Part shown: positions 2,100-12,807 of the stretch, one piece after another
Numbering within the stretch: position 1 is the first letter of the stretch
Layout: each line of letters starts with the position of its first letter
Source of the DNA: Thermoproteota archaeon
GTDB taxonomy: Archaea; Korarchaeota; Korarchaeia; B14-G2
Direction of reading: 5' to 3'
Length of the DNA stretch: 13,819 nt
Assembly: GCA_037917675.1 (NCBI GenBank)
Contig: JAVCBW010000038.1
Coordinates: 1 to 13,819, forward strand
The notes under the pieces: model-generated
Database searches by the model: none
What the model saw: the letters and a program-made list of their open reading frames with translations, nothing else
What the model was told of the DNA's origin: nothing
Position numbers and translations under genes: made by a program

Positions 2100-3158
2100 T
2101 TGATTAGGATAGAGGATCTCACCTTAGAACTAGGGGAGTTCAAGCTAGACGACATAACCCTAGAGGCTAGAGCAGGAGAGTACATGGTTGTAATGGGCCC
2201 AAGTGGAGCAGGGAAAACCCTGCTGCTCCACACGATAGCAGGAATATATAGGCCATCTAGAGGGAGAGTGTTCATAGCTGGCCGAGATGTGACAGCTGAC
2301 CCCCCAGAGAAGCGGCGTGTAGCTCTTGTTCCACAAGACTATGCGCTCTTCCCCCACATGACAGCATATGAGAACATAGCATTTGGCCTCATTCAGAGGA
2401 AGCTTCCTAGAGGCGAGGTAGATCAGAGGGTGAAGGACATAGCTGAGGTCCTTGGTGTCAAGCATCTCCTCCACAGGAAGCCAGCTACACTGAGTGGGGG
2501 AGAGCAGCAGAGGATAGCCTTAGCTAGAGCACTAGTCACTGACCCAGATGTGCTGCTGCTAGATGAGCCTACAGCAGCTCTAGACCCACCTCTGAGGGCA
2601 GAAGCTAGAAGGTACCTGAAGCAGCTACATGCAGAGCTAGAGTTCACAGCAGTACATGTCACACACAGCTTCACAGAGGCAGCTGAGCTAGCTGACAGAA
2701 TAGCTTTCATGAGGGAAGGCCGCATACTCCAGGCTGGAACCCTAGAGGAGATCCTCTATGCTCCAGCATCCCCCAAGATAGCAGAGTTCACAGGAGACAT
2801 AAACGCTTACAGGGCTAGGATGGTAGCTGACTTGGGGGGGCAAGCTGAAGTTGAGGTGGAAGGCATAAGGCTTAGAGCAGTCAAGGCACCAGGAGCACAG
2901 AGCAGAGGCATACTGGTCGTGAGGCCAGAAGACATCATAGTCTCAAGAGAGAAGCCAAGAGGCTTGAGTGCAAGGAACATGCTGCAGGCACGAGTAGAGG
3001 AAGTAGCTCAGAAGGGCCCCCTCTACCTGGTGTCCTCTAAGGCAGGCCAAATCAATGTCAAAGCCTACCTGACGAGGGCTTCGCTAGAGGAGCTGGAGGT
3101 AAAGCCAGGAGCCATGGTCTATCTCACATTCAAGGTGAGCAGCACAGTATACAGGTGA
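2100..3158 (+). CDS. modC: Molybdate/tungstate ABC transporter ATP-binding subunit with C-terminal TOBE regulatory domain (ModC/WtpC)
   Basis: Walker A GPSGAGKT, signature LSGGEQQR, Walker B LLLDEP, VTH switch, C-terminal SARN oxyanion-binding motif. AGGTGA RBS precedes the TTG. Confidence 0.93.
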   Translation: MIRIEDLTLELGEFKLDDITLEARAGEYMVVMGPSGAGKTLLLHTIAGIYRPSRGRVFIAGRDVTADPPEKRRVALVPQDYALFPHMTAYENIAFGLIQRKLPRGEVDQRVKDIAEVLGVKHLLHRKPATLSGGEQQRIALARALVTDPDVLLLDEPTAALDPPLRAEARRYLKQLHAELEFTAVHVTHSFTEAAELADRIAFMREGRILQAGTLEEILYAPASPKIAEFTGDINAYRARMVADLGGQAEVEVEGIRLRAVKAPGAQSRGILVVRPEDIIVSREKPRGLSARNMLQARVEEVAQKGPLYLVSSKAGQINVKAYLTRASLEELEVKPGAMVYLTFKVSSTVYR

Positions 3159-3160
3159 AG

Positions 3161-3994
3161 CTACCTCCTAAGCCTCACCTCTACCATGTGGTACCTGAAG
3201 CCAAGCCTCTCAGATGGCACGCCAGCTGCCAAAGCTAGGAGCTGAGTCAGGTAGAGGACTGGCAGCCTCCTGCTCCAGCCTCTCTGAGCTAGCTCAAGCT
3301 GCCTGAAGCAGGTTGGGCACACAACAACCATGCACTCTGCACCAGCATCCAGTGCGTTACTAAGCTTAAGCCTAGCCTGCTCGAGTGAAAGCTCTCTATC
3401 AGCCCTCCACACATAGTAGGCGCAGCAGAGCTCCTCACCCTCATAGGAGACTGGCTCAGCTCCTGCAGCTGAGACAAGCTCCCTGAGAGCCCTAGGGCTC
3501 TTTACATCATCATACTCAGGGAGCTCCTCATAGATGTGGCATCCCAGGTGGGTTGCAGCCTTCACCTCAACAGGCCTCTCGACAGCAGCCTTCACACCAT
3601 CCACTCCAACCTCCTCGTATAGCAGCCTGAGTATGCTCTCCACCCTAGCCCCCCCGCTATAGCTCCTGCCTACCGCACTCAGGTACCTGTTCACCTCCTC
3701 CCTCTTCTCTTCGCTTCCAAGCTCCCTCCAAGCTGAAAGCAAGCTCTTAGTGCACCCGCTGCACAGCGAGACCAGCTCTAGGCCAGCCTCCTCTGCGAGC
3801 GAGAGGTTTCTAGCTGCTAGCACAAGCCAGCTAACCTTGTCTAGGAGCTGCATGGACGATGGCTCAGGGCAGCATGAGAACCCGCTTAAGCTCACAGCCT
3901 CAATCCCAAGCTTCTCCAGCAGAAGCCTGGTAGCAGCCTCGAACTGTGGGTACCTAGCTGAGATCACACAGCCAGGGAAGATAAGCTTCCTCAT
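3161..3994 (-). CDS. hdrB: Heterodisulfide reductase subunit B-like protein (two CCG domains)
   Basis: Two complete non-cubane [4Fe-4S] motifs: C9, C41-C42, C78-x2-C81 and C152(H153), C190-C191, C226-x2-C229. AARNL motif present. ATGA overlap with the upstream gene. Confidence 0.9.
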   Translation of the reverse strand: MRKLIFPGCVISARYPQFEAATRLLLEKLGIEAVSLSGFSCCPEPSSMQLLDKVSWLVLAARNLSLAEEAGLELVSLCSGCTKSLLSAWRELGSEEKREEVNRYLSAVGRSYSGGARVESILRLLYEEVGVDGVKAAVERPVEVKAATHLGCHIYEELPEYDDVKSPRALRELVSAAGAEPVSYEGEELCCAYYVWRADRELSLEQARLKLSNALDAGAECMVVVCPTCFRQLELAQRGWSRRLPVLYLTQLLALAAGVPSERLGFRYHMVEVRLRR

Positions 3995-4773
3995 CTTCCC
4001 ACCCTCCTCAAGAGCCCAGTTTCCTCAAGAAGCCTCTTGACCTCCCCAGCACCGAAGTCTACCTCCTCAGCTAGCCCAAGCTCCCTCCTCCTTCGAGCTG
4101 AGGCTGTGGTGAACGGGATCCCACAGCCACTTTCAGCAACTGACCTCACAATCCCACTGAACATCTCCAGTATCCCTCTAAACCTATCGAGTGCAGCTGG
4201 CTTGAACTCAGGCTCAGCTTCAGCTCCCCTCGCGAGCCTCAGTAGCAGAGCAGGCTCCCTGACTTCAGCTGGAGGCTCCACCACGACACCAAGCTGGAGA
4301 GCTAGCCCACTAGCCACCATGAGAGCAGCTTCACGTGCAGCCTCCTCTTCGCTTCTAAACCTGAGTGCTCCAGTTGGGCATGCCTCGACACAGGCTGGTG
4401 GAAGCCCATCCTCTAGCCTACTAGGACACCTATCACACTTCAAGACGCCACCATCTCCAGGTGAGACAGCTGCAAATGGGCAGACCATCATACAAGACCT
4501 ACAGCCTATGCATAGCTCCCTATCGTACTCTACTATGTCACCAGCTCTCTTGAGAGCTCCAGTAGGACACACGACTACACACGGAGGGCTATCACAGTGC
4601 ATGCAGAGCACTGGGAGAGGGAGCATAGCTACAGGAACAACCTTGATCCTAGGCTTCACACGCTCAAGCATAGCTGAAGCAAGGCTTTTACCAGGAGAGT
4701 GCTCTACTGCGCAAGCTATCTCACAGCTCCTGCAGCCAGTACACCTCCATGGGTCTACATAAAGCATCTGCAC
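3991..4773 (-). CDS. CooF/DmsB-type 4x[4Fe-4S] polyferredoxin fused to an HdrC-like C-terminal tail
   Basis: 16 Cys in four cluster motifs; paralog of 5078-5686. The tail GIVRSVAESGCGIPF...RRRRELGL...EVKRLLEETGL resembles the HdrC C-terminus. Start placed at GTG 4773 (GGTGG RBS at 4780-4784) rather than 4827. Confidence 0.85.
   Translation of the reverse strand: MQMLYVDPWRCTGCRSCEIACAVEHSPGKSLASAMLERVKPRIKVVPVAMLPLPVLCMHCDSPPCVVVCPTGALKRAGDIVEYDRELCIGCRSCMMVCPFAAVSPGDGGVLKCDRCPSRLEDGLPPACVEACPTGALRFRSEEEAAREAALMVASGLALQLGVVVEPPAEVREPALLLRLARGAEAEPEFKPAALDRFRGILEMFSGIVRSVAESGCGIPFTTASARRRRELGLAEEVDFGAGEVKRLLEETGLLRRVGR
4358..4405 (-). repeat. Outer inverted repeat, copy 1 (48 bp; pairs with 5479-5526)
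   Basis: Reverse complement matches 5479-5526 at 47/48; encodes LPPACVEACPTGALRF. Confidence 0.95.
4697..4729 (-). repeat. Inner inverted repeat, copy 1 (33 bp; pairs with 5143-5175)
   Basis: Reverse complement GAGCTGTGAGATAGCTTGCGCAGTAGAGCACTC is identical to 5143-5175. Confidence 0.95.
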
Positions 4774-5010
4774 ATGAAGCCACCAACCCCCTATTCTGCC
4801 AAGCTTAATAACACTTATCTGCCACATGGCTCATAGCTTTAGACAAGAGCAGCGCTGCAAATCAGCCTGCACCTAGCAAGATGCCTCCGTTGCTGCTAGT
4901 AGCTTAACAGGTTTATCCCCACTTGCATCTGGGTGCTATGCTGATGGCAGTCTAAGCCCACTGCACTGGTGTCACATTTCTACAAAAAGTAACACTATCA
5001 GCTGACTTGG

Positions 5011-5029
5011 TTTAAGTACTTTACTTAAA
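5011..5029. promoter_or_regulatory. Palindromic operator or back-to-back TATA-like element in the divergent promoter
   Basis: TTTAAGTA-CTT-TACTTAAA, a perfect 8-bp inverted repeat. Confidence 0.5.
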
Positions 5030-5077
5030 GGGCACGAAACCTTTATCTGCCATACTTATTGGGGCTCTGGGGGGAAG

Positions 5078-5686
5078 TTGCCTGAGAGCATATCTCCTGA
5101 GTACCTGATATACATCGACTCATCTAGGTGTGTTGCATGCAAGAGCTGTGAGATAGCTTGCGCAGTAGAGCACTCCGAGTCGAAAACGCTTATTTCAGCT
5201 ATATTCGAGGCTCCTAAGCCTAGGCCTAGGGTCAAGGTCGTTGTAGCAGCTACACTCACGGTTCCAATAAGATGCATGCACTGTGATCCAGCACCATGCA
5301 TAGAGGTCTGTCCGACAAAGGCCATGTATAGGGTAGAAGAAGGATATGTGCTATCTGACCCAGTTAAGTGTATAGGGTGTAGGGCATGCCTGATAGCATG
5401 TCCATTCGGCCACCCAGCTTACAGCCGTGAGCTTAAGGTCATAAAGTGTGACCACTGTATAGAGAGGCTCAGACAAGAGCTTCCACCAGCCTGTGTCGAG
5501 GCATGCCCGACTGGAGCACTCAGGTTCGGTAGAGCTGAGGAGCTTCTCCTTGAGGTCAAGGAGAAGAAGGCTGCTGAGCTGGTCACCGGGGTTGTGAGCC
5601 CAGGTGTGGCTTACGCTAAGCCACCTGAGAAGCCCTCCCCCCTATCTATGATTAAGGAGATGTATGAGCCTGTGAGGTGGACTTAG
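5078..5686 (+). CDS. cooF: CO dehydrogenase-associated iron-sulfur protein CooF (4x[4Fe-4S])
   Basis: 16 Cys: CxxCxxCxxxC, CxxCx4CxxxCP, CxxCxxCxxxCP, CxxC..CxxxCP. The stop codon directly abuts the cooS ATG. Confidence 0.9.
   Translation: MPESISPEYLIYIDSSRCVACKSCEIACAVEHSESKTLISAIFEAPKPRPRVKVVVAATLTVPIRCMHCDPAPCIEVCPTKAMYRVEEGYVLSDPVKCIGCRACLIACPFGHPAYSRELKVIKCDHCIERLRQELPPACVEACPTGALRFGRAEELLLEVKEKKAAELVTGVVSPGVAYAKPPEKPSPLSMIKEMYEPVRWT
5143..5175 (+). repeat. Inner inverted repeat, copy 2 (33 bp)
   Basis: 33/33 identical to the reverse complement of 4697-4729; encodes SCEIACAVEHS. Confidence 0.95.
5479..5526 (+). repeat. Outer inverted repeat, copy 2 (48 bp)
   Basis: 47/48 identical to the reverse complement of 4358-4405; the single mismatch at 5509 is synonymous. 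Confidence 0.95.
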
Positions 5687-7615
5687 ATGGCTGCTGAAAG
5701 GATCTATGAGAGGCTCATGAAGGTCTCTCGAAGAGAGTTCTATGAGGGAGTCTCGATAGACCCTACTGTAGCCCCCCTCCTTGAGAAAGCTGAGAGAGAT
5801 AAGGTTGAGATAGCCTGGCATAGGTATCTGGCTCAGCAGCCTCAGTGTGGCTTCGGCCTACTTGGGGTATGCTGTAGGAACTGCAACATGGGCCCATGTA
5901 GGATAGATCCATTTGGATACGGCCCCTCCAAGGGGACGTGTGGAGCTACAGCAGACACCATAGTAGCTAGGAACCTCATGAGAGCTCTTGCAGCTGGAGC
6001 AGCAGCACACAGCGACCATGCTCGTGACATAGTTAAGGTCTTCAAGGGGATCCCAGAGGGCTGGGCTAAGGGATATACGATAAAGGACGAGGAGAAGCTG
6101 AGGAATGTGGCGAGGAGCCTAGGCATACAGGTTGAGGGCAGGGATGTCAAGGAGATAGCTCTAGATGTTGCCAAGATCCTTGAGATGGAGTTCGGGAAGC
6201 CAGGGGAAGACCCGCTTAAGCTGGCTGAAGCTCTAGCTCCAGAGAGGAGGAAGCGGGTCTGGAGGAAGATAGGGATAATGCCTAGGGCGATAGACAGGGA
6301 GGTGACAGAGATAATGCACAGGACACATATGGGAGTTGATGCAGATCCACTCAGCCTGATAGCTCAGGGGCTGAGGTGCGCCTTGGCAGATGGCTGGAGC
6401 GGCTCAATGATGGCTACGCTGCTAAGTGACATAATGTTCGGGACTCCAAAGCCTCTGAGGTCAGCAGCAAACCTAGGGGTTCTCAGGGAGAAGGCAGTCA
6501 ACATACTCGTACACGGGCACAACCCTGTGCTCTCCATGAAGATAGCTGAGGCAGCAGAGGACCCTGAGCTAGTGGAGCTAGCGAGGAAGCTGGGTGCAGA
6601 GGAGGGGATAAACGTAGTAGGCATGTGCTGCACAGGAAACGAGGTTCTCATGAGGCTTGGGATCCCGGTAGCAGGGAACATGCTCCAGCAGGAGCTAGCT
6701 ATAGTAACGGGAGCACTAGAAGCTGTTGTAGTAGACTACCAGTGTATAATGCCAGCTATAGTAGACGTGGCATCATGCTACCACACTAAGGTCATCACAA
6801 CAGAGCCTAAGGCACACATCCCTGGTGCAGTGCACATAGAGTTCGAGCCAGAGCATGCAGACGAGGTGGCGAAGAAGATAGTCAGGGTGGCAGTAGAGAA
6901 CTTCCCCAATAGGGTGAAGGAGAAGGTGCAGATACCTGAGGAGAAGATGGAGCTGACAGCAGGGTTCAGCGTGGAAGCCATACTAGAGGCTCTAGGTGGG
7001 ACGCTGGAGCCTCTAGCAAAAGCCCTGAAGGAGGGCAAGATAAAGGGTATAGCTGGTGTGGTAGGCTGTGTCAACCCTAAGGTAAGGCATGAGTACAGCC
7101 ATGTAACACTGACAAAGGAGCTCATAAAGAATGACATACTCGTCGTAGGGACAGGCTGCTGGGCTATAACAATGGGTAAGCATGGCCTGCTGAGGCCTGA
7201 AGCAGCTGAGCTAGCAGGCCCAGGCCTAAGGGAGATATGCAAAGCTCTAGGAGTACCGCCATGCCTACACATGGGGAGCTGTGTAGACTGCTCAAGGATG
7301 CTCATAGCTCTAGGCGCGCTAGCAGACTACCTCGGAGTAGACATATCAGACTTACCGGCAGCAGGGTCAGCTCCAGAGTGGATGAGTGAGAAGGCAGTCT
7401 CAATAGGCGCCTACTTCGTGGCTACAGGGCTCCTAGTACACTTAGGCACAATACCACCAGTCCTAGGGAGCAAAGCTGTAGTAGAGATACTTACAAGCAA
7501 GGCAGAAGAGCTGGTAGGAGGAAAGTTCTACGTGGAGCCAGATCCAGTGAAGGCAGCACAGACCCTGATAGCACACATAAGGGAGAAGAGGAAGAAGCTA
7601 GGCTGGCCAGAGTAG
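5687..7615 (+). CDS. cooS: Anaerobic Ni,Fe carbon monoxide dehydrogenase catalytic subunit
   Basis: D/B-cluster QCGFGLLGVCCRNCNMGPC..TCGA; HSDH; C-cluster ligands HGHNP, MCCTGNE, DYQC, VVGC, TGC, MGSCVD; catalytic Lys in WMSEKA. Confidence 0.97.
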   Translation: MAAERIYERLMKVSRREFYEGVSIDPTVAPLLEKAERDKVEIAWHRYLAQQPQCGFGLLGVCCRNCNMGPCRIDPFGYGPSKGTCGATADTIVARNLMRALAAGAAAHSDHARDIVKVFKGIPEGWAKGYTIKDEEKLRNVARSLGIQVEGRDVKEIALDVAKILEMEFGKPGEDPLKLAEALAPERRKRVWRKIGIMPRAIDREVTEIMHRTHMGVDADPLSLIAQGLRCALADGWSGSMMATLLSDIMFGTPKPLRSAANLGVLREKAVNILVHGHNPVLSMKIAEAAEDPELVELARKLGAEEGINVVGMCCTGNEVLMRLGIPVAGNMLQQELAIVTGALEAVVVDYQCIMPAIVDVASCYHTKVITTEPKAHIPGAVHIEFEPEHADEVAKKIVRVAVENFPNRVKEKVQIPEEKMELTAGFSVEAILEALGGTLEPLAKALKEGKIKGIAGVVGCVNPKVRHEYSHVTLTKELIKNDILVVGTGCWAITMGKHGLLRPEAAELAGPGLREICKALGVPPCLHMGSCVDCSRMLIALGALADYLGVDISDLPAAGSAPEWMSEKAVSIGAYFVATGLLVHLGTIPPVLGSKAVVEILTSKAEELVGGKFYVEPDPVKAAQTLIAHIREKRKKLGWPE

Positions 7616-9313: not shown

Positions 9314-11089
9314 ATGGGGGTGTTAGGGTCTAGCTTGAAAGGTAGGCTTCTGGTAGCTGTCCTCTTGACGCTTCTTGCTCTAGCGCCTCTAGCTGGTAGG
9401 AGGGTAGCTAGCAGAGGAGAGCACCTACCCTTCTCACTATACCACATTACTCCACTGAATAGGATCCTTTACCCTAGAGTTGCTGCGCCAGCTTTCTGTG
9501 AGGCTGGGGGGGCTCTGACAGTGTACGTTGGCTACATTGAGGGCGAAAAGCCTGCTAAGAGCACTGAGTGGAGCGGCAGCTTGGAGTCTATCCTCTATGG
9601 GAGCTATGAGCTAGAGAAGCTAGAGCAGAGCTTTGATGAGAGAGGCTTCTGGAGGATAGAGTTCAGGGTCCCTGATGAAGCTGAGGGCCTCTACAACCTG
9701 ACGCTTAGAGCTGAGGGCATGGTGTTCACTGAGCCAAACTGCATCAAGGTGTATAGGGAGTTTCCTAGCGAGCTCAGAGCTGGGGTGCTTACTGATAACC
9801 ACGTTGGCTTGAGGAGGCAGCTGAGATACAAGGTGAATAATGAGGTGTTTGAGGTTGTGCTTGCTACACTAGACTCCCTAGGCTTAGACCTGATAGTAGA
9901 CTGTGGTGACATCGTTGACGCTACAGCAGATGAGGAGCCATATAGGTATGTCTATGAGCTGATATCCCAGCTAGCTACGCCAATACTCTTCACAATGGGC
10001 AACAACGACTACTACACTATTGAAAAGGGGAGGTGGTGGTGGGAGAAGTACTTTACTCCACTGAGATGGAGTACGACGATAGGAAGATACCACTTCATCT
10101 CTCTAGACACAGATACAGGGAGAGTGACAGATGAGGCCTTGAGCTGGCTAGAGGAGGACATGGCTCTCAATAGGGACAAGAAGATAGTGCTCTTCTTCCA
10201 CTACCCATACTGGGATCCAAACCAGATATCACCTAACGCATATGAGAAGCTGCCTAAGCTCATAGAGGAGCATAATGTCATCCTAGTTCTGCTAGGGCAT
10301 AGGCACATAGATGAGGTCAGGAAGCCACCTGAGCTCCCTGCTCTGACAATAACAACTACAGCTACAGCAGCATCTCAGAGGTATCGTGGCTACCGCCTGC
10401 TCACCATCAAGAGTGAGCATGTAGAGTATACGCCTGAGAGCACACCCTATGAGAAGCTTGGAGTGAAGCTCCTCCAGAGGAGGGATGGAAGCTCAACAGG
10501 GGTGGCAGCCAAGGTGTGGAACAAGCTGGGTGAGCCAGCTACTCTAAGGATCCTAGTGAGGCTCAAGCCAGGACCACTTAAAGCTGAGGGAGCTGAAGCA
10601 AAGGCCGCGAGGGAGTCTAGGGGTGCTCTAGCTGCAGCTCTGGAGGTGAGCCTGCCACCAGGCTCAGAGAAGGTCATCAAAGCCTATACTATGGAGGACA
10701 AGGCTCCACCTAAAGTTGAGGTGCACCCTGATGAAGCTGAAGACTACATTTCACTAGACTACACTGCATCAGACATAGGCCTCGGTGTGCTAGAGGTTAC
10801 TGTGTACTACAGCCATGACAACAAGACATGGAATAGAGCTCAGGTTAAGGTTGTAGACGAATACCCTCTGCCGACAGCTCCGAAGGCTGAGAGAGTCTAC
10901 TATAAGGCTGAGGCAGTGGATGCAGCTGGAAACAAGGCTGTAGCATACGGGGTGTATGAGGCTAAGCCGCCGGCAGCTACATCGGAGATAGAGGAGAGGA
11001 AGGTGGCTCCAGCTTTAGGGCTTGTAGGTGCTGTTGTGGCTGCTGCAGCTATAGCTGTAGTCTTAGTCTTATGGAGGATGAGAAGGTGA
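9314..11089 (+). CDS. Secreted, C-terminally anchored calcineurin-like metallophosphoesterase (variant GNND motif)
   Basis: Signal peptide; motifs TDNH, CGD, GNND, FHYP, GHRH; beta-rich flanking domains; C-terminal TM helix plus RMRR. Confidence 0.85.
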   Translation: MGVLGSSLKGRLLVAVLLTLLALAPLAGRRVASRGEHLPFSLYHITPLNRILYPRVAAPAFCEAGGALTVYVGYIEGEKPAKSTEWSGSLESILYGSYELEKLEQSFDERGFWRIEFRVPDEAEGLYNLTLRAEGMVFTEPNCIKVYREFPSELRAGVLTDNHVGLRRQLRYKVNNEVFEVVLATLDSLGLDLIVDCGDIVDATADEEPYRYVYELISQLATPILFTMGNNDYYTIEKGRWWWEKYFTPLRWSTTIGRYHFISLDTDTGRVTDEALSWLEEDMALNRDKKIVLFFHYPYWDPNQISPNAYEKLPKLIEEHNVILVLLGHRHIDEVRKPPELPALTITTTATAASQRYRGYRLLTIKSEHVEYTPESTPYEKLGVKLLQRRDGSSTGVAAKVWNKLGEPATLRILVRLKPGPLKAEGAEAKAARESRGALAAALEVSLPPGSEKVIKAYTMEDKAPPKVEVHPDEAEDYISLDYTASDIGLGVLEVTVYYSHDNKTWNRAQVKVVDEYPLPTAPKAERVYYKAEAVDAAGNKAVAYGVYEAKPPAATSEIEERKVAPALGLVGAVVAAAAIAVVLVLWRMRR

Positions 11090-12807
11090 AGGCTAAGGTT
11101 GCAGTGCTCCTAGCAATCACCTTCATGTCCATTCTCGCAGTGAGCTGCCAGCCAGCTACTCCACTCAACAAGGTGTGGTGGCCTAGGCTAGGTTTCCCTG
11201 CTTTCGTGAAGCCGGGTGGCAACATAACCGTGGAGCTAGCTAGCATAGAGCCCCAGGCAATATACCTGGTCAACGAAACCCATAGGCTCAAGCTCAAAGT
11301 GAAGTCGAAGCATAGAGATGGCTGGCTGGCTAAGGCTGTAGCTGAGGTCCCAGTGGAGGCAGGTGAAGGCCTCTATAACCTTAGTGTGCTAGCTAGCAAT
11401 GGAGCATTCGAGGAGCCCCACTCAGTCTACGTCTATAAGGCCACTAGGATTCCATTCACCATATTCTGGATAACTGACACACACTATGATGTCAAGCCTG
11501 GAGCAGAGTACCTTAGGCTCATATTCAGGAAGTGGATTAGGATAGCAAACTTCCTGAAGCCAGACCTCATCGTCGTCACTGGGGACATCGTAAACAACCC
11601 GCCGGAGCACCTCTTTAAGTCAGTTTACAGAGAGCTACTAGAGCTAGAGGTTCCAGTCCTCTTGGTCCCAGGGAACCATGACTGGTCTAAGGAGGGATAC
11701 TTCATAAGGTACCTGTCTGTCTCAAACCGCTCTCTCACGATAGACTGGATCCACCTGGTTGCCCTAGACACGGGGCCAGGAGGCTTTCACGGCTGGCTCA
11801 CCGAGGAGCAGATGGACTGGCTAGAAGAGGACTTAGCTGCTCACAGTGGGTGCCCAGTTAAGCTGCTGCTCATGCATCACCCACTCTACCACATTGAGAA
11901 CAGGACTGGAGCAAGCTTGATGAGGCTAGCTGACATAGCTAGGAGATATAATGTTAGCTTGATCCTATCAGGGCACTCTCATGTCAACAAGGACATTATG
12001 GAGCCAGTACACTACCTGGTTGGGACAAGTGGCTTCAAGGGAGGGAAGCCTTACTCTGGCTTCTACCTCCTGAAGCTCACTCCACAGGGAGTAGACTACA
12101 AGATAAATGGCACATACAAGCCCATACCACACAGGGACTTCGAAGTCAAGCCTCTACAGAGGAACGCTGGTGAGAAGCCTGCTATAGCAGTCTATCTGAG
12201 GAACAGCTGGTGGTTCCCAGTCAAAGGCTACCTGAAGCTTAGGCTGAAGAAAGCTGGGAGGCAGCTTGAAGTAGAGGGAGGCAAGCTCACATCTCAGGTC
12301 AACGCTGGAAGCTACATGATAGCTGAGGTTGAGGTGAGGCTCAAGCCAGGAGAAGAGAAGCTGGTGAAAGCATGCTATGCTCAAGCACAGGACAGGCAGC
12401 CGCCCAAAGTGGTCGATGTAGGCTACAAGATCAGAGAGAGCCTGGCTGTAGCCATAGCAACCCTCACGATAACAGTAGAGGACGACTACCTCGGAGTTAG
12501 AGACGTGACAGTAGCCTACACAACAGATAACAAGACGTGGTCAGCTATGAAGCCAGTCTACATCTCACCAGACACCTACCAGGCAGTGATACAGGTACAA
12601 AAAGGCCCACCATACCTGACAGTAAAGGTGAGAGCAGAAGACCTAACTGGAAAGACTACAGAGAAAGCCATCACAATAAAGCTGCCAAAGCCACCAGAAG
12701 AGCAGAAGCCAGAAGAGAAGACCCCTCTAACGATAGTAGCCATAGCTACAGCTATGGCCGTAGCTATAGTAGCCATAGCCCTATACCTGGTAAGGAGGAG
12801 GCCATAA
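11086..12807 (+). CDS. Secreted, C-terminally anchored calcineurin-like metallophosphoesterase
   Basis: Signal peptide; motifs TDTH, TGD, GNHD, MHHP, GHSH; Pro/Glu/Lys linker, TM helix, RRR. Likely start GTG 11086 (GTGA overlap, GGAGG at 11073-11077); ATG 11071 is the alternative. Confidence 0.88.
   Translation: MKAKVAVLLAITFMSILAVSCQPATPLNKVWWPRLGFPAFVKPGGNITVELASIEPQAIYLVNETHRLKLKVKSKHRDGWLAKAVAEVPVEAGEGLYNLSVLASNGAFEEPHSVYVYKATRIPFTIFWITDTHYDVKPGAEYLRLIFRKWIRIANFLKPDLIVVTGDIVNNPPEHLFKSVYRELLELEVPVLLVPGNHDWSKEGYFIRYLSVSNRSLTIDWIHLVALDTGPGGFHGWLTEEQMDWLEEDLAAHSGCPVKLLLMHHPLYHIENRTGASLMRLADIARRYNVSLILSGHSHVNKDIMEPVHYLVGTSGFKGGKPYSGFYLLKLTPQGVDYKINGTYKPIPHRDFEVKPLQRNAGEKPAIAVYLRNSWWFPVKGYLKLRLKKAGRQLEVEGGKLTSQVNAGSYMIAEVEVRLKPGEEKLVKACYAQAQDRQPPKVVDVGYKIRESLAVAIATLTITVEDDYLGVRDVTVAYTTDNKTWSAMKPVYISPDTYQAVIQVQKGPPYLTVKVRAEDLTGKTTEKAITIKLPKPPEEQKPEEKTPLTIVAIATAMAVAIVAIALYLVRRRP

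Follow-up and report, generated by a model that had tools for sequence, protein, structure and literature searches.

Two ferredoxin genes of an uncultured hyperthermophilic archaeon (Thermoproteota archaeon, Korarchaeota; assembly GCA_037917675.1), here termed A and B, share short blocks of identical nucleotide sequence that were most probably left by ectopic gene conversion, recurrent and in short tracts, between these inverted CooF-type paralogs. Both genes lie in the window analysed here, the whole of contig C4 (JAVCBW010000038.1; 13,819 nucleotides, nt), which belongs to a metagenome-assembled genome (MAG) of 1.78 Mb in 62 contigs with a GC content of 49.7% and a completeness of 92.7%. They are inversely oriented and divergently transcribed, with about 300 bp between them, and their products are 51% identical. 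A previous sequence-only reading of the locus had proposed an invertible cassette and had named gene conversion and codon bias as alternatives; of these, gene conversion is the one backed by the mosaic pattern of silent-site identity, by orthologs that are unconstrained in the same blocks and by the co-variation of the two paralogs in a sister lineage. The two genes and the repeat arms within them are as follows.

3991–4773, reverse strand: ferredoxin A, a CooF-like four-cluster ferredoxin (Fer4_11, 3.3e-18) with a C-terminal extension of about 110 amino acids
5078–5686, forward strand: ferredoxin B, CooF, the iron–sulphur subunit gene immediately upstream of cooS (Fer4_11, 2e-20)
4358–4405: outer repeat, gene A arm, codons LPPACVEACPTGALRF, identical at 47/48 positions to 5479–5526
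4591–4605: middle 15-nt match, gene A arm, encoding CMHCD, identical at 15/15 positions to 5273–5287
4697–4729: inner repeat, gene A arm, encoding SCEIACAVEHS, identical at 33/33 positions to 5143–5175
5143–5175: inner repeat, gene B arm (33/33)
5273–5287: middle 15-nt match, gene B arm (15/15)
5479–5526: outer repeat, gene B arm (47/48); compared with the sister lineage, its sites 5494 and 5497 change together with gene A

All three pairs of inverted repeats that had been read from the sequence are present with the identities claimed for them (33/33, 47/48 and 15/15), and they are codon-aligned and thus in frame in both genes. The codon alignment of A and B also bears out the silent differences that had been described in another shared motif, CIGCR. 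When mismatches are allowed the repeat arms lengthen to 81 nt (78% identity) and 64 nt (89% identity), and the blocks are found exactly twice in the 1.78 Mb genome. The middle 15-nt match taken alone is weak evidence.

The identity of the two genes at silent sites goes far beyond what codon usage predicts. The aligned core of A and B comprises 149 codon pairs, 79 of which encode the same residue, and 78 of these are degenerate; the codons are identical at 56 of the 78. Genome codon usage predicts 33.5 identical codons (P 7e-8) and the usage in the adjoining genes cooS and hdrB 40.2; synonymous shuffles within each gene yield 34.9 ± 3.8, with 56 reached in 0 of 20,000 shuffles. The same holds for the exact runs, which measure 33 and 30 nt between A and B. 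Redrawing codons from the usage of the genome gives a longest exact run of 12.6 nt on average; a run of at least 33 nt arises with a probability of 1.5e-4 and a second run of at least 30 nt occurs in 0 of 20,000 draws; in the within-gene shuffles the corresponding figures are a fraction of 3e-4 and 0 of 20,000. As a genome-wide control we compared 261 paralog pairs with 35–75% amino acid identity over at least 120 aligned residues, among which the A/B pair ranks first by the fraction of same codons (0.72 versus a median of 0.46). Codon bias as an explanation is rejected by the redraws, the shuffles and the paralog control alike.

This excess is not spread evenly along the genes. Same codons make up 30/33 in the 5′ third (5102–5290 in B) and 16/19 in the 3′ part (5479–5560), in contrast to 10/26 in the middle (5291–5478), which is the chance level and differs from the 5′ and 3′ flanks in Fisher tests with P values of 4e-5 and 0.003, respectively. 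In the 5′ third, silently identical codons and replaced ones are intermixed, the replaced ones differing at two to three positions.

The blocks are not conserved as nucleotide motifs in related genomes. Orthologs of B are found beside cooS in relatives, which belong to another family of the same class, with 62–70% identity, and we aligned 17 homolog loci from relatives' genomes, namely 14 clear CooF orthologs and three that are more distant. All 17 show silent changes within the blocks while their amino acids are conserved, and block identity is thus a peculiarity of A and B in this genome; on the evidence of this alignment there is no general nucleotide constraint acting on them.

A scan of metagenomes recovered a single syntenic contig, L073 (3925 nt), all of the other 79 loci being at most 54% identical. 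It represents a sister lineage, is collinear with positions 2352–6254 of the window at 85.4% nucleotide identity over 3.9 kb, and carries the same genes in the same order and orientation: cooS, a counterpart of B (B2), the intergenic region, a counterpart of A (A2), the hdrB-like gene and an ABC ATPase. In a four-way codon alignment A2 and B2 are identical over about 51 nt of the outer block, in which two adjacent codons read TGC GTG in both A2 and B2 versus TGT GTC in both A and B, a silent difference at each. The inner block contains a further such site, TGT in A2 and B2 versus TGC in A and B, and is otherwise broken down to an 18-nt run in the sister lineage, where the middle 15-nt match is broken as well. 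The outer block hence groups the paralogs by genome rather than by orthology in both lineages. Across 462 core sites, 112 support the orthologous pattern, 7 the concerted pattern (A = B, A2 = B2) and 2 the alternative incongruent pattern.

The regional distribution of same codons points in the same direction. Between A2 and B2 they amount to 20/30 in the 5′ third, 11/28 in the middle and 19/19 in the 3′ part, and the orthologous pairs A–A2 and B–B2 share near 70% of codons in every region. If the copies had been identical when the lineages split and had only accumulated mutations since, about 70% identity would be expected; the 19/19 of the sister 3′ part and the 30/33 of our 5′ third both lie above this value, with rough binomial probabilities of about 0.001 and 0.004. 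In simulations of independent decay, two adjacent concerted codons in a block of 16 codons arise with a probability of 0.006–0.023. Judged from the alignment, the co-varying silent sites of both paralogs in the sister outer block are an instance of concerted evolution. Together, the features by which ectopic conversion and concerted evolution are recognised are found at this locus: an excess of silent identity, its mosaic distribution, grouping by genome and no motif conservation in orthologs.

The simplest account of these patterns would be an exchange that was repeated and non-reciprocal, that took place both before and after the split of the two lineages and that was limited to two parts of the genes, the 5′ third and the final cluster motif. 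Heteroduplex would form where the genes remain similar, which is to say in the 5′ third and at the last cluster-binding motif, and patches would be copied from one gene into the other. Selection would presumably remove those patches that alter paralog-specific residues, so that the visible remainder would consist mostly of homogenised silent sites inside conserved iron–sulphur (Fe-S) motifs, with the middle of the genes left unexchanged and saturated. The molecular route may involve RadA-type recombination followed by uncoordinated short-patch resolution of mismatches, as in Sulfolobus. The genome encodes reverse gyrase and NucS/EndoMS, and MutS was not found in it at 92.7% completeness; this repair background matches that of Sulfolobus acidocaldarius. 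By analogy, short-patch resolution could explain how identical silent codons come to lie between diverged replacement codons in the 5′ third.

Several observations weigh against conversion and temper our confidence in it. The count of 7 concerted versus 2 alternative sites is weak when taken alone (one-sided binomial probability about 0.09); of the seven concerted sites, four fall in two-fold degenerate cysteine codons, which are prone to parallel change. The binomial probabilities given above assume equal rates in the two lineages, and singleton changes number 30 in the sister lineage versus 21 in ours. The comparison comprises two lineages only, both of them metagenome assemblies. The intermixing of codons in the 5′ third calls for patches of very small size or else for stringent filtering by selection, both of them hypothetical elements of the proposed mechanism. 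Finally, an approximately unbiased (AU) test does not reject a single clade of A, A2, B and B2 (p 0.107), and a lineage-specific duplication with very fast protein divergence thus stays compatible with the protein tree.

Such a duplication furnishes a competing explanation, according to which A is a recent, lineage-specific duplicate of B whose protein diverged rapidly, and the blocks are unmutated remnants of the duplication that require no conversion. The narrow distribution of A speaks for this scenario alongside the AU result: a single orthologous cluster (P0002, 88% identity) exists among 5.8 billion clustered proteins, and in 40 relatives A has no ortholog, its best matches being their CooF genes at 48–57% identity. 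A scan of species-representative genomes returned 21 loci, none of them above 41% identity to A, and a genome of the same genus (G001, 91% complete) has no match to either A or B. Yet A is no nearer to its own B (51%) than to the CooF proteins of other families (48–57%), and in the free protein tree it is not placed with B; its branch, 3.35 changes per site long, falls inside the CooF clade without a clear placement there. Given this position and the AU result, the tree does not settle the age of the duplication. The silent sites are more telling, as the middle of A and B is at the chance level (10/26) while the orthologs hold about 70%, meaning that the A/B split in this region is much older than the split of the two lineages, and remnants of a duplication would not co-vary between paralogs after the lineages had separated. 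We consider a recent duplication without conversion unlikely.

The sequence-only reading had favoured another possibility, namely that the repeats are the crossover sites of a reversible inversion that acts as a phase-variation-like switch between the cooS and hdrB-like operons. A crossover in the inner pair would exchange promoters and N-termini, and one in the outer pair would exchange whole ferredoxin cores. The geometry that inspired this proposal stands: the repeats are inverted, in frame and flank a divergent promoter region, and the products would stay in frame. There is also a precedent in the inverted tuf genes of Salmonella, in which conversion was accompanied by inversion in nearly half of the selected events (PMC5485169), making occasional inversions mechanistically plausible. 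The switch itself is without any positive evidence. No recombinase was detected among the 11 open reading frames (ORFs) of the window scanned against Pfam, in agreement with the earlier reading; this search was limited to the window, and the remainder of the genome was not searched for invertases. A comparison of orientation among assemblies, which the same reading had called for, shows that both available assemblies (the window and L073) share one orientation over their collinear 3.9 kb. This includes the intergenic region, which aligns to L073 with 206/317 identical columns as it stands and 123/329 when flipped. The N-terminus of B is the usual one among CooF orthologs in either lineage, and the inner repeat is not conserved as a site, since the sister lineage retains no more than an 18-nt run of it. 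The last 77 nt of the window contig C4 recur without a difference as the first 77 nt of contig C36, which suggests that the two contigs join and that the assembler used a word length (k) of 77; assembly at this k would have spanned both repeats in the reported orientation.

Public sequencing data on the locus come from two runs of two studies, X1 and X2, with a third run of the same study containing next to none of this stretch. We compared their Logan contigs (k = 31) over positions 3000–7000 and found that they end exactly at the repeats (3000–4386, 4388–4726, 4700–5172, 5146–5508 and 5479–7000); none bridges a repeat and none shows a joint, so that neither orientation is visible in them. 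All in all we regard an inversion switch as very unlikely. A combined scheme, in which identity islands kept by conversion double as crossover points and a minority of cells is inverted, with the exchanges between the two operons described above, strikes us as just as doubtful, although if true it would constitute a recombinase-free rewiring switch of electron flow, driven by homologous recombination, in a hyperthermophilic archaeon.

The run contigs also bear on strain variation at the locus. One contig of X1, a minority one with a word depth of 42.6 of 174.5, shows a G>A change at site 4387 that turns a GTC codon of A into GTT; this site is homologous to the concerted site 5497 of B, so that the population is polymorphic in this block. 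Relative to the window, the contigs of X1 and X2 alike have C>T at 4800 and A>G at 5269, and those of X2 differ also at 5025, 5032 and 5036. The change at 5269 replaces an isoleucine of B with methionine, which the sister lineage and most orthologs have as well. By these differences the window represents a slightly different strain from the one that dominates in X1 and X2.

Selection could in principle act on the nucleotide or RNA sequence itself, for example through a common sense-strand element in both mRNAs that serves as the target of a shared regulator, and the identity of the outer block between the paralogs of both lineages would suit such an element. We hold it to be highly improbable: CooF orthologs vary freely at silent sites within the blocks, the inner block has not been maintained in the sister lineage, an Rfam scan of 4300–5600 returned 0 matches at E <= 1, and the co-variation of the paralogs would still require conversion as its mechanism. 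Chance combined with codon bias, or an assembly artefact, is barely credible, for even though the blocks coincide with conserved Fe-S motifs where amino acid identity already lifts nucleotide identity, codon bias fails against the shuffles and the genome-wide paralog control, and independent contigs from two runs of two studies (one of them possibly the source sample of the window) reproduce both arms without differences in the blocks. Assembly collapse as the cause of the identical arms is rejected in view of these contigs, and also because none of the repeats, 48 nt long at most, reaches the k of 77 that the assembler likely used.

The genes around the ferredoxin pair and the region between them are given here.

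3161–3994, reverse strand: hdrB-like gene with two CCG domains (Pfam CCG, 1.5e-26), downstream of ferredoxin A in the same operon
4774–5077: intergenic and promoter region from which genes A and B diverge, collinear with the sister contig L073
5687–7615, forward strand: cooS, the catalytic subunit of the anaerobic CO dehydrogenase (TIGR01702, 749.8 bits, cut-off 478; Pfam Prismane, 1.5e-187)

Gene B is a four-cluster Fer4_11 ferredoxin that adjoins cooS and is orthologous to the CooF of relatives, which are the grounds for naming it CooF. Gene A has the fold and CooF proteins as its best matches, and is called only CooF-like in view of its hdrB-like neighbour, its extra C-terminal part and its long branch. 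Its likely start is a GTG codon at 4773, the ORF being open as far as an ATG at 4827, and the database copy of the protein measures 260 amino acids. The hdrB-like gene overlaps A by 4 nt. It scores 221.8 bits against NCBIfam TIGR03288, which is under the cut-off of 345; its top match among the 40 relatives is 41% identical, and three paralogs at 37–40% identity are located elsewhere in the genome. The pair of CooF-like and HdrB-like genes is lineage-specific, occupying 3161–4773 in the window and 1487–3099 in L073, and four relatives contain a shorter match to the CCG domain at a distance of 6.5–7 kb from cooF on the same contig. The locus thus displays a lineage-specific CooF-like/HdrB-like module next to cooFS, and we infer that this module may couple CO oxidation to an enzyme of the disulfide reductase type.

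Within the intergenic region several stretches have been kept relative to L073 amid general divergence, at approximately 4775–4791, 4800–4817, 4968–5002 and 5033–5046, along with a run of G residues before the start of B. A TAACAC-containing motif is situated close to the starts of both A and B. To judge by their conservation and position, these stretches and the motif are candidate promoter or regulator sites.

Further afield in the window, 9314–11089 and 11071–12807 are tandem genes with metallophosphoesterase domains and signal- or anchor-like ends that overlap by 19 nt; their sequences suggest a duplicated pair of phosphoesterases, either secreted or bound to the membrane. The end of the contig (13547–13819) consists of a repeat of about 260 nt with copies of 92–94% identity on contigs C7, C22, C12 and C19, three of which lie within about 350 nt of a contig end.

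Elsewhere in the genome, 12 of the 261 diverged paralog pairs (35–75% amino acid identity) hold exact nucleotide runs of at least 25 nt, which extend up to 70–77 nt at 41–54% protein identity. Such pairs are found at C23:~15121/15600, C44:10995/12194 and C54:49239/50492, and between C54:28061 and C57:1, C3:2988 and C42:3600, and C25:3735 and C43:17583; the run of 77 nt abuts the start of a contig and could stem from the assembly k. Patchy exchange may accordingly be common, and the runs hint at a process that operates genome-wide.

The locus offers a natural example of very short conversion tracts (about 15–50 nt) between paralogs that are about 50% identical in protein, from an uncultured hyperthermophilic archaeon. 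The process itself is already known, and this further example of it is of modest interest. On the practical side, conversion patches can mislead phylogenies of Fe-S proteins and can break or misjoin metagenome assemblies.

Concerted evolution of prokaryotic paralogs has been surveyed for 26 genes, in which the paralogs are more alike within a genome than to their orthologs (PMC6053082); the terms ferredoxin, 4Fe-4S and carbon monoxide have 0 occurrences in the main text of this survey, and the A/B pair is apparently not among the 26 genes. A close known case is the co-evolution of tufA and tufB in Salmonella, inverted paralogs that gene conversion keeps alike (Hughes 2000, cited in PMC5485169). 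Like A and B, the tuf genes are inversely oriented paralogs on one chromosome that undergo conversion, and in tuf the same recombination can invert the intervening DNA (PMC5485169). The tuf genes, however, are described as near-identical over their full length and far apart (PMC5485169), whereas A and B have 51% protein identity, are about 300 bp apart and share short patches; an inversion between them would make chimeric genes and swap the operon promoters, and this was not observed.

Amongst archaea, the methanogen genes mtrA-1 and mtrA-2 reportedly experienced long-lasting gene conversion (PMC4632066). They resemble A and B in being archaeal paralogs of one locus, of which one copy has an added domain and the shared domain is homogenised (PMC4632066). 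In mtrA the whole shared domain evolves in concert across orders (PMC4632066), in contrast to our two close lineages, in which concerted evolution is limited to the 5′ third plus a block some 50 nt long and the middle of the domain escapes.

A mechanistic parallel is provided by Sulfolobus acidocaldarius, a hyperthermophilic archaeon that lacks MutSL and for which conversion tracts have been demonstrated to be short and discontinuous; uncoordinated short-patch excision resolves single mismatches and often separates markers that are only 20–30 nt apart (PMC3367456). That work concerns laboratory transformation of pyrE with marked donor DNA (PMC3367456), while here we are dealing with natural, diverged paralogs of a different, uncultured lineage in which the exchange is inferred from sequence only. 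With this difference in mind, the fine mosaic of A and B matches short-patch resolution as described for Sulfolobus acidocaldarius (PMC3367456), and fits a mode of recombination that has so far been known mainly from laboratory work on Sulfolobus.

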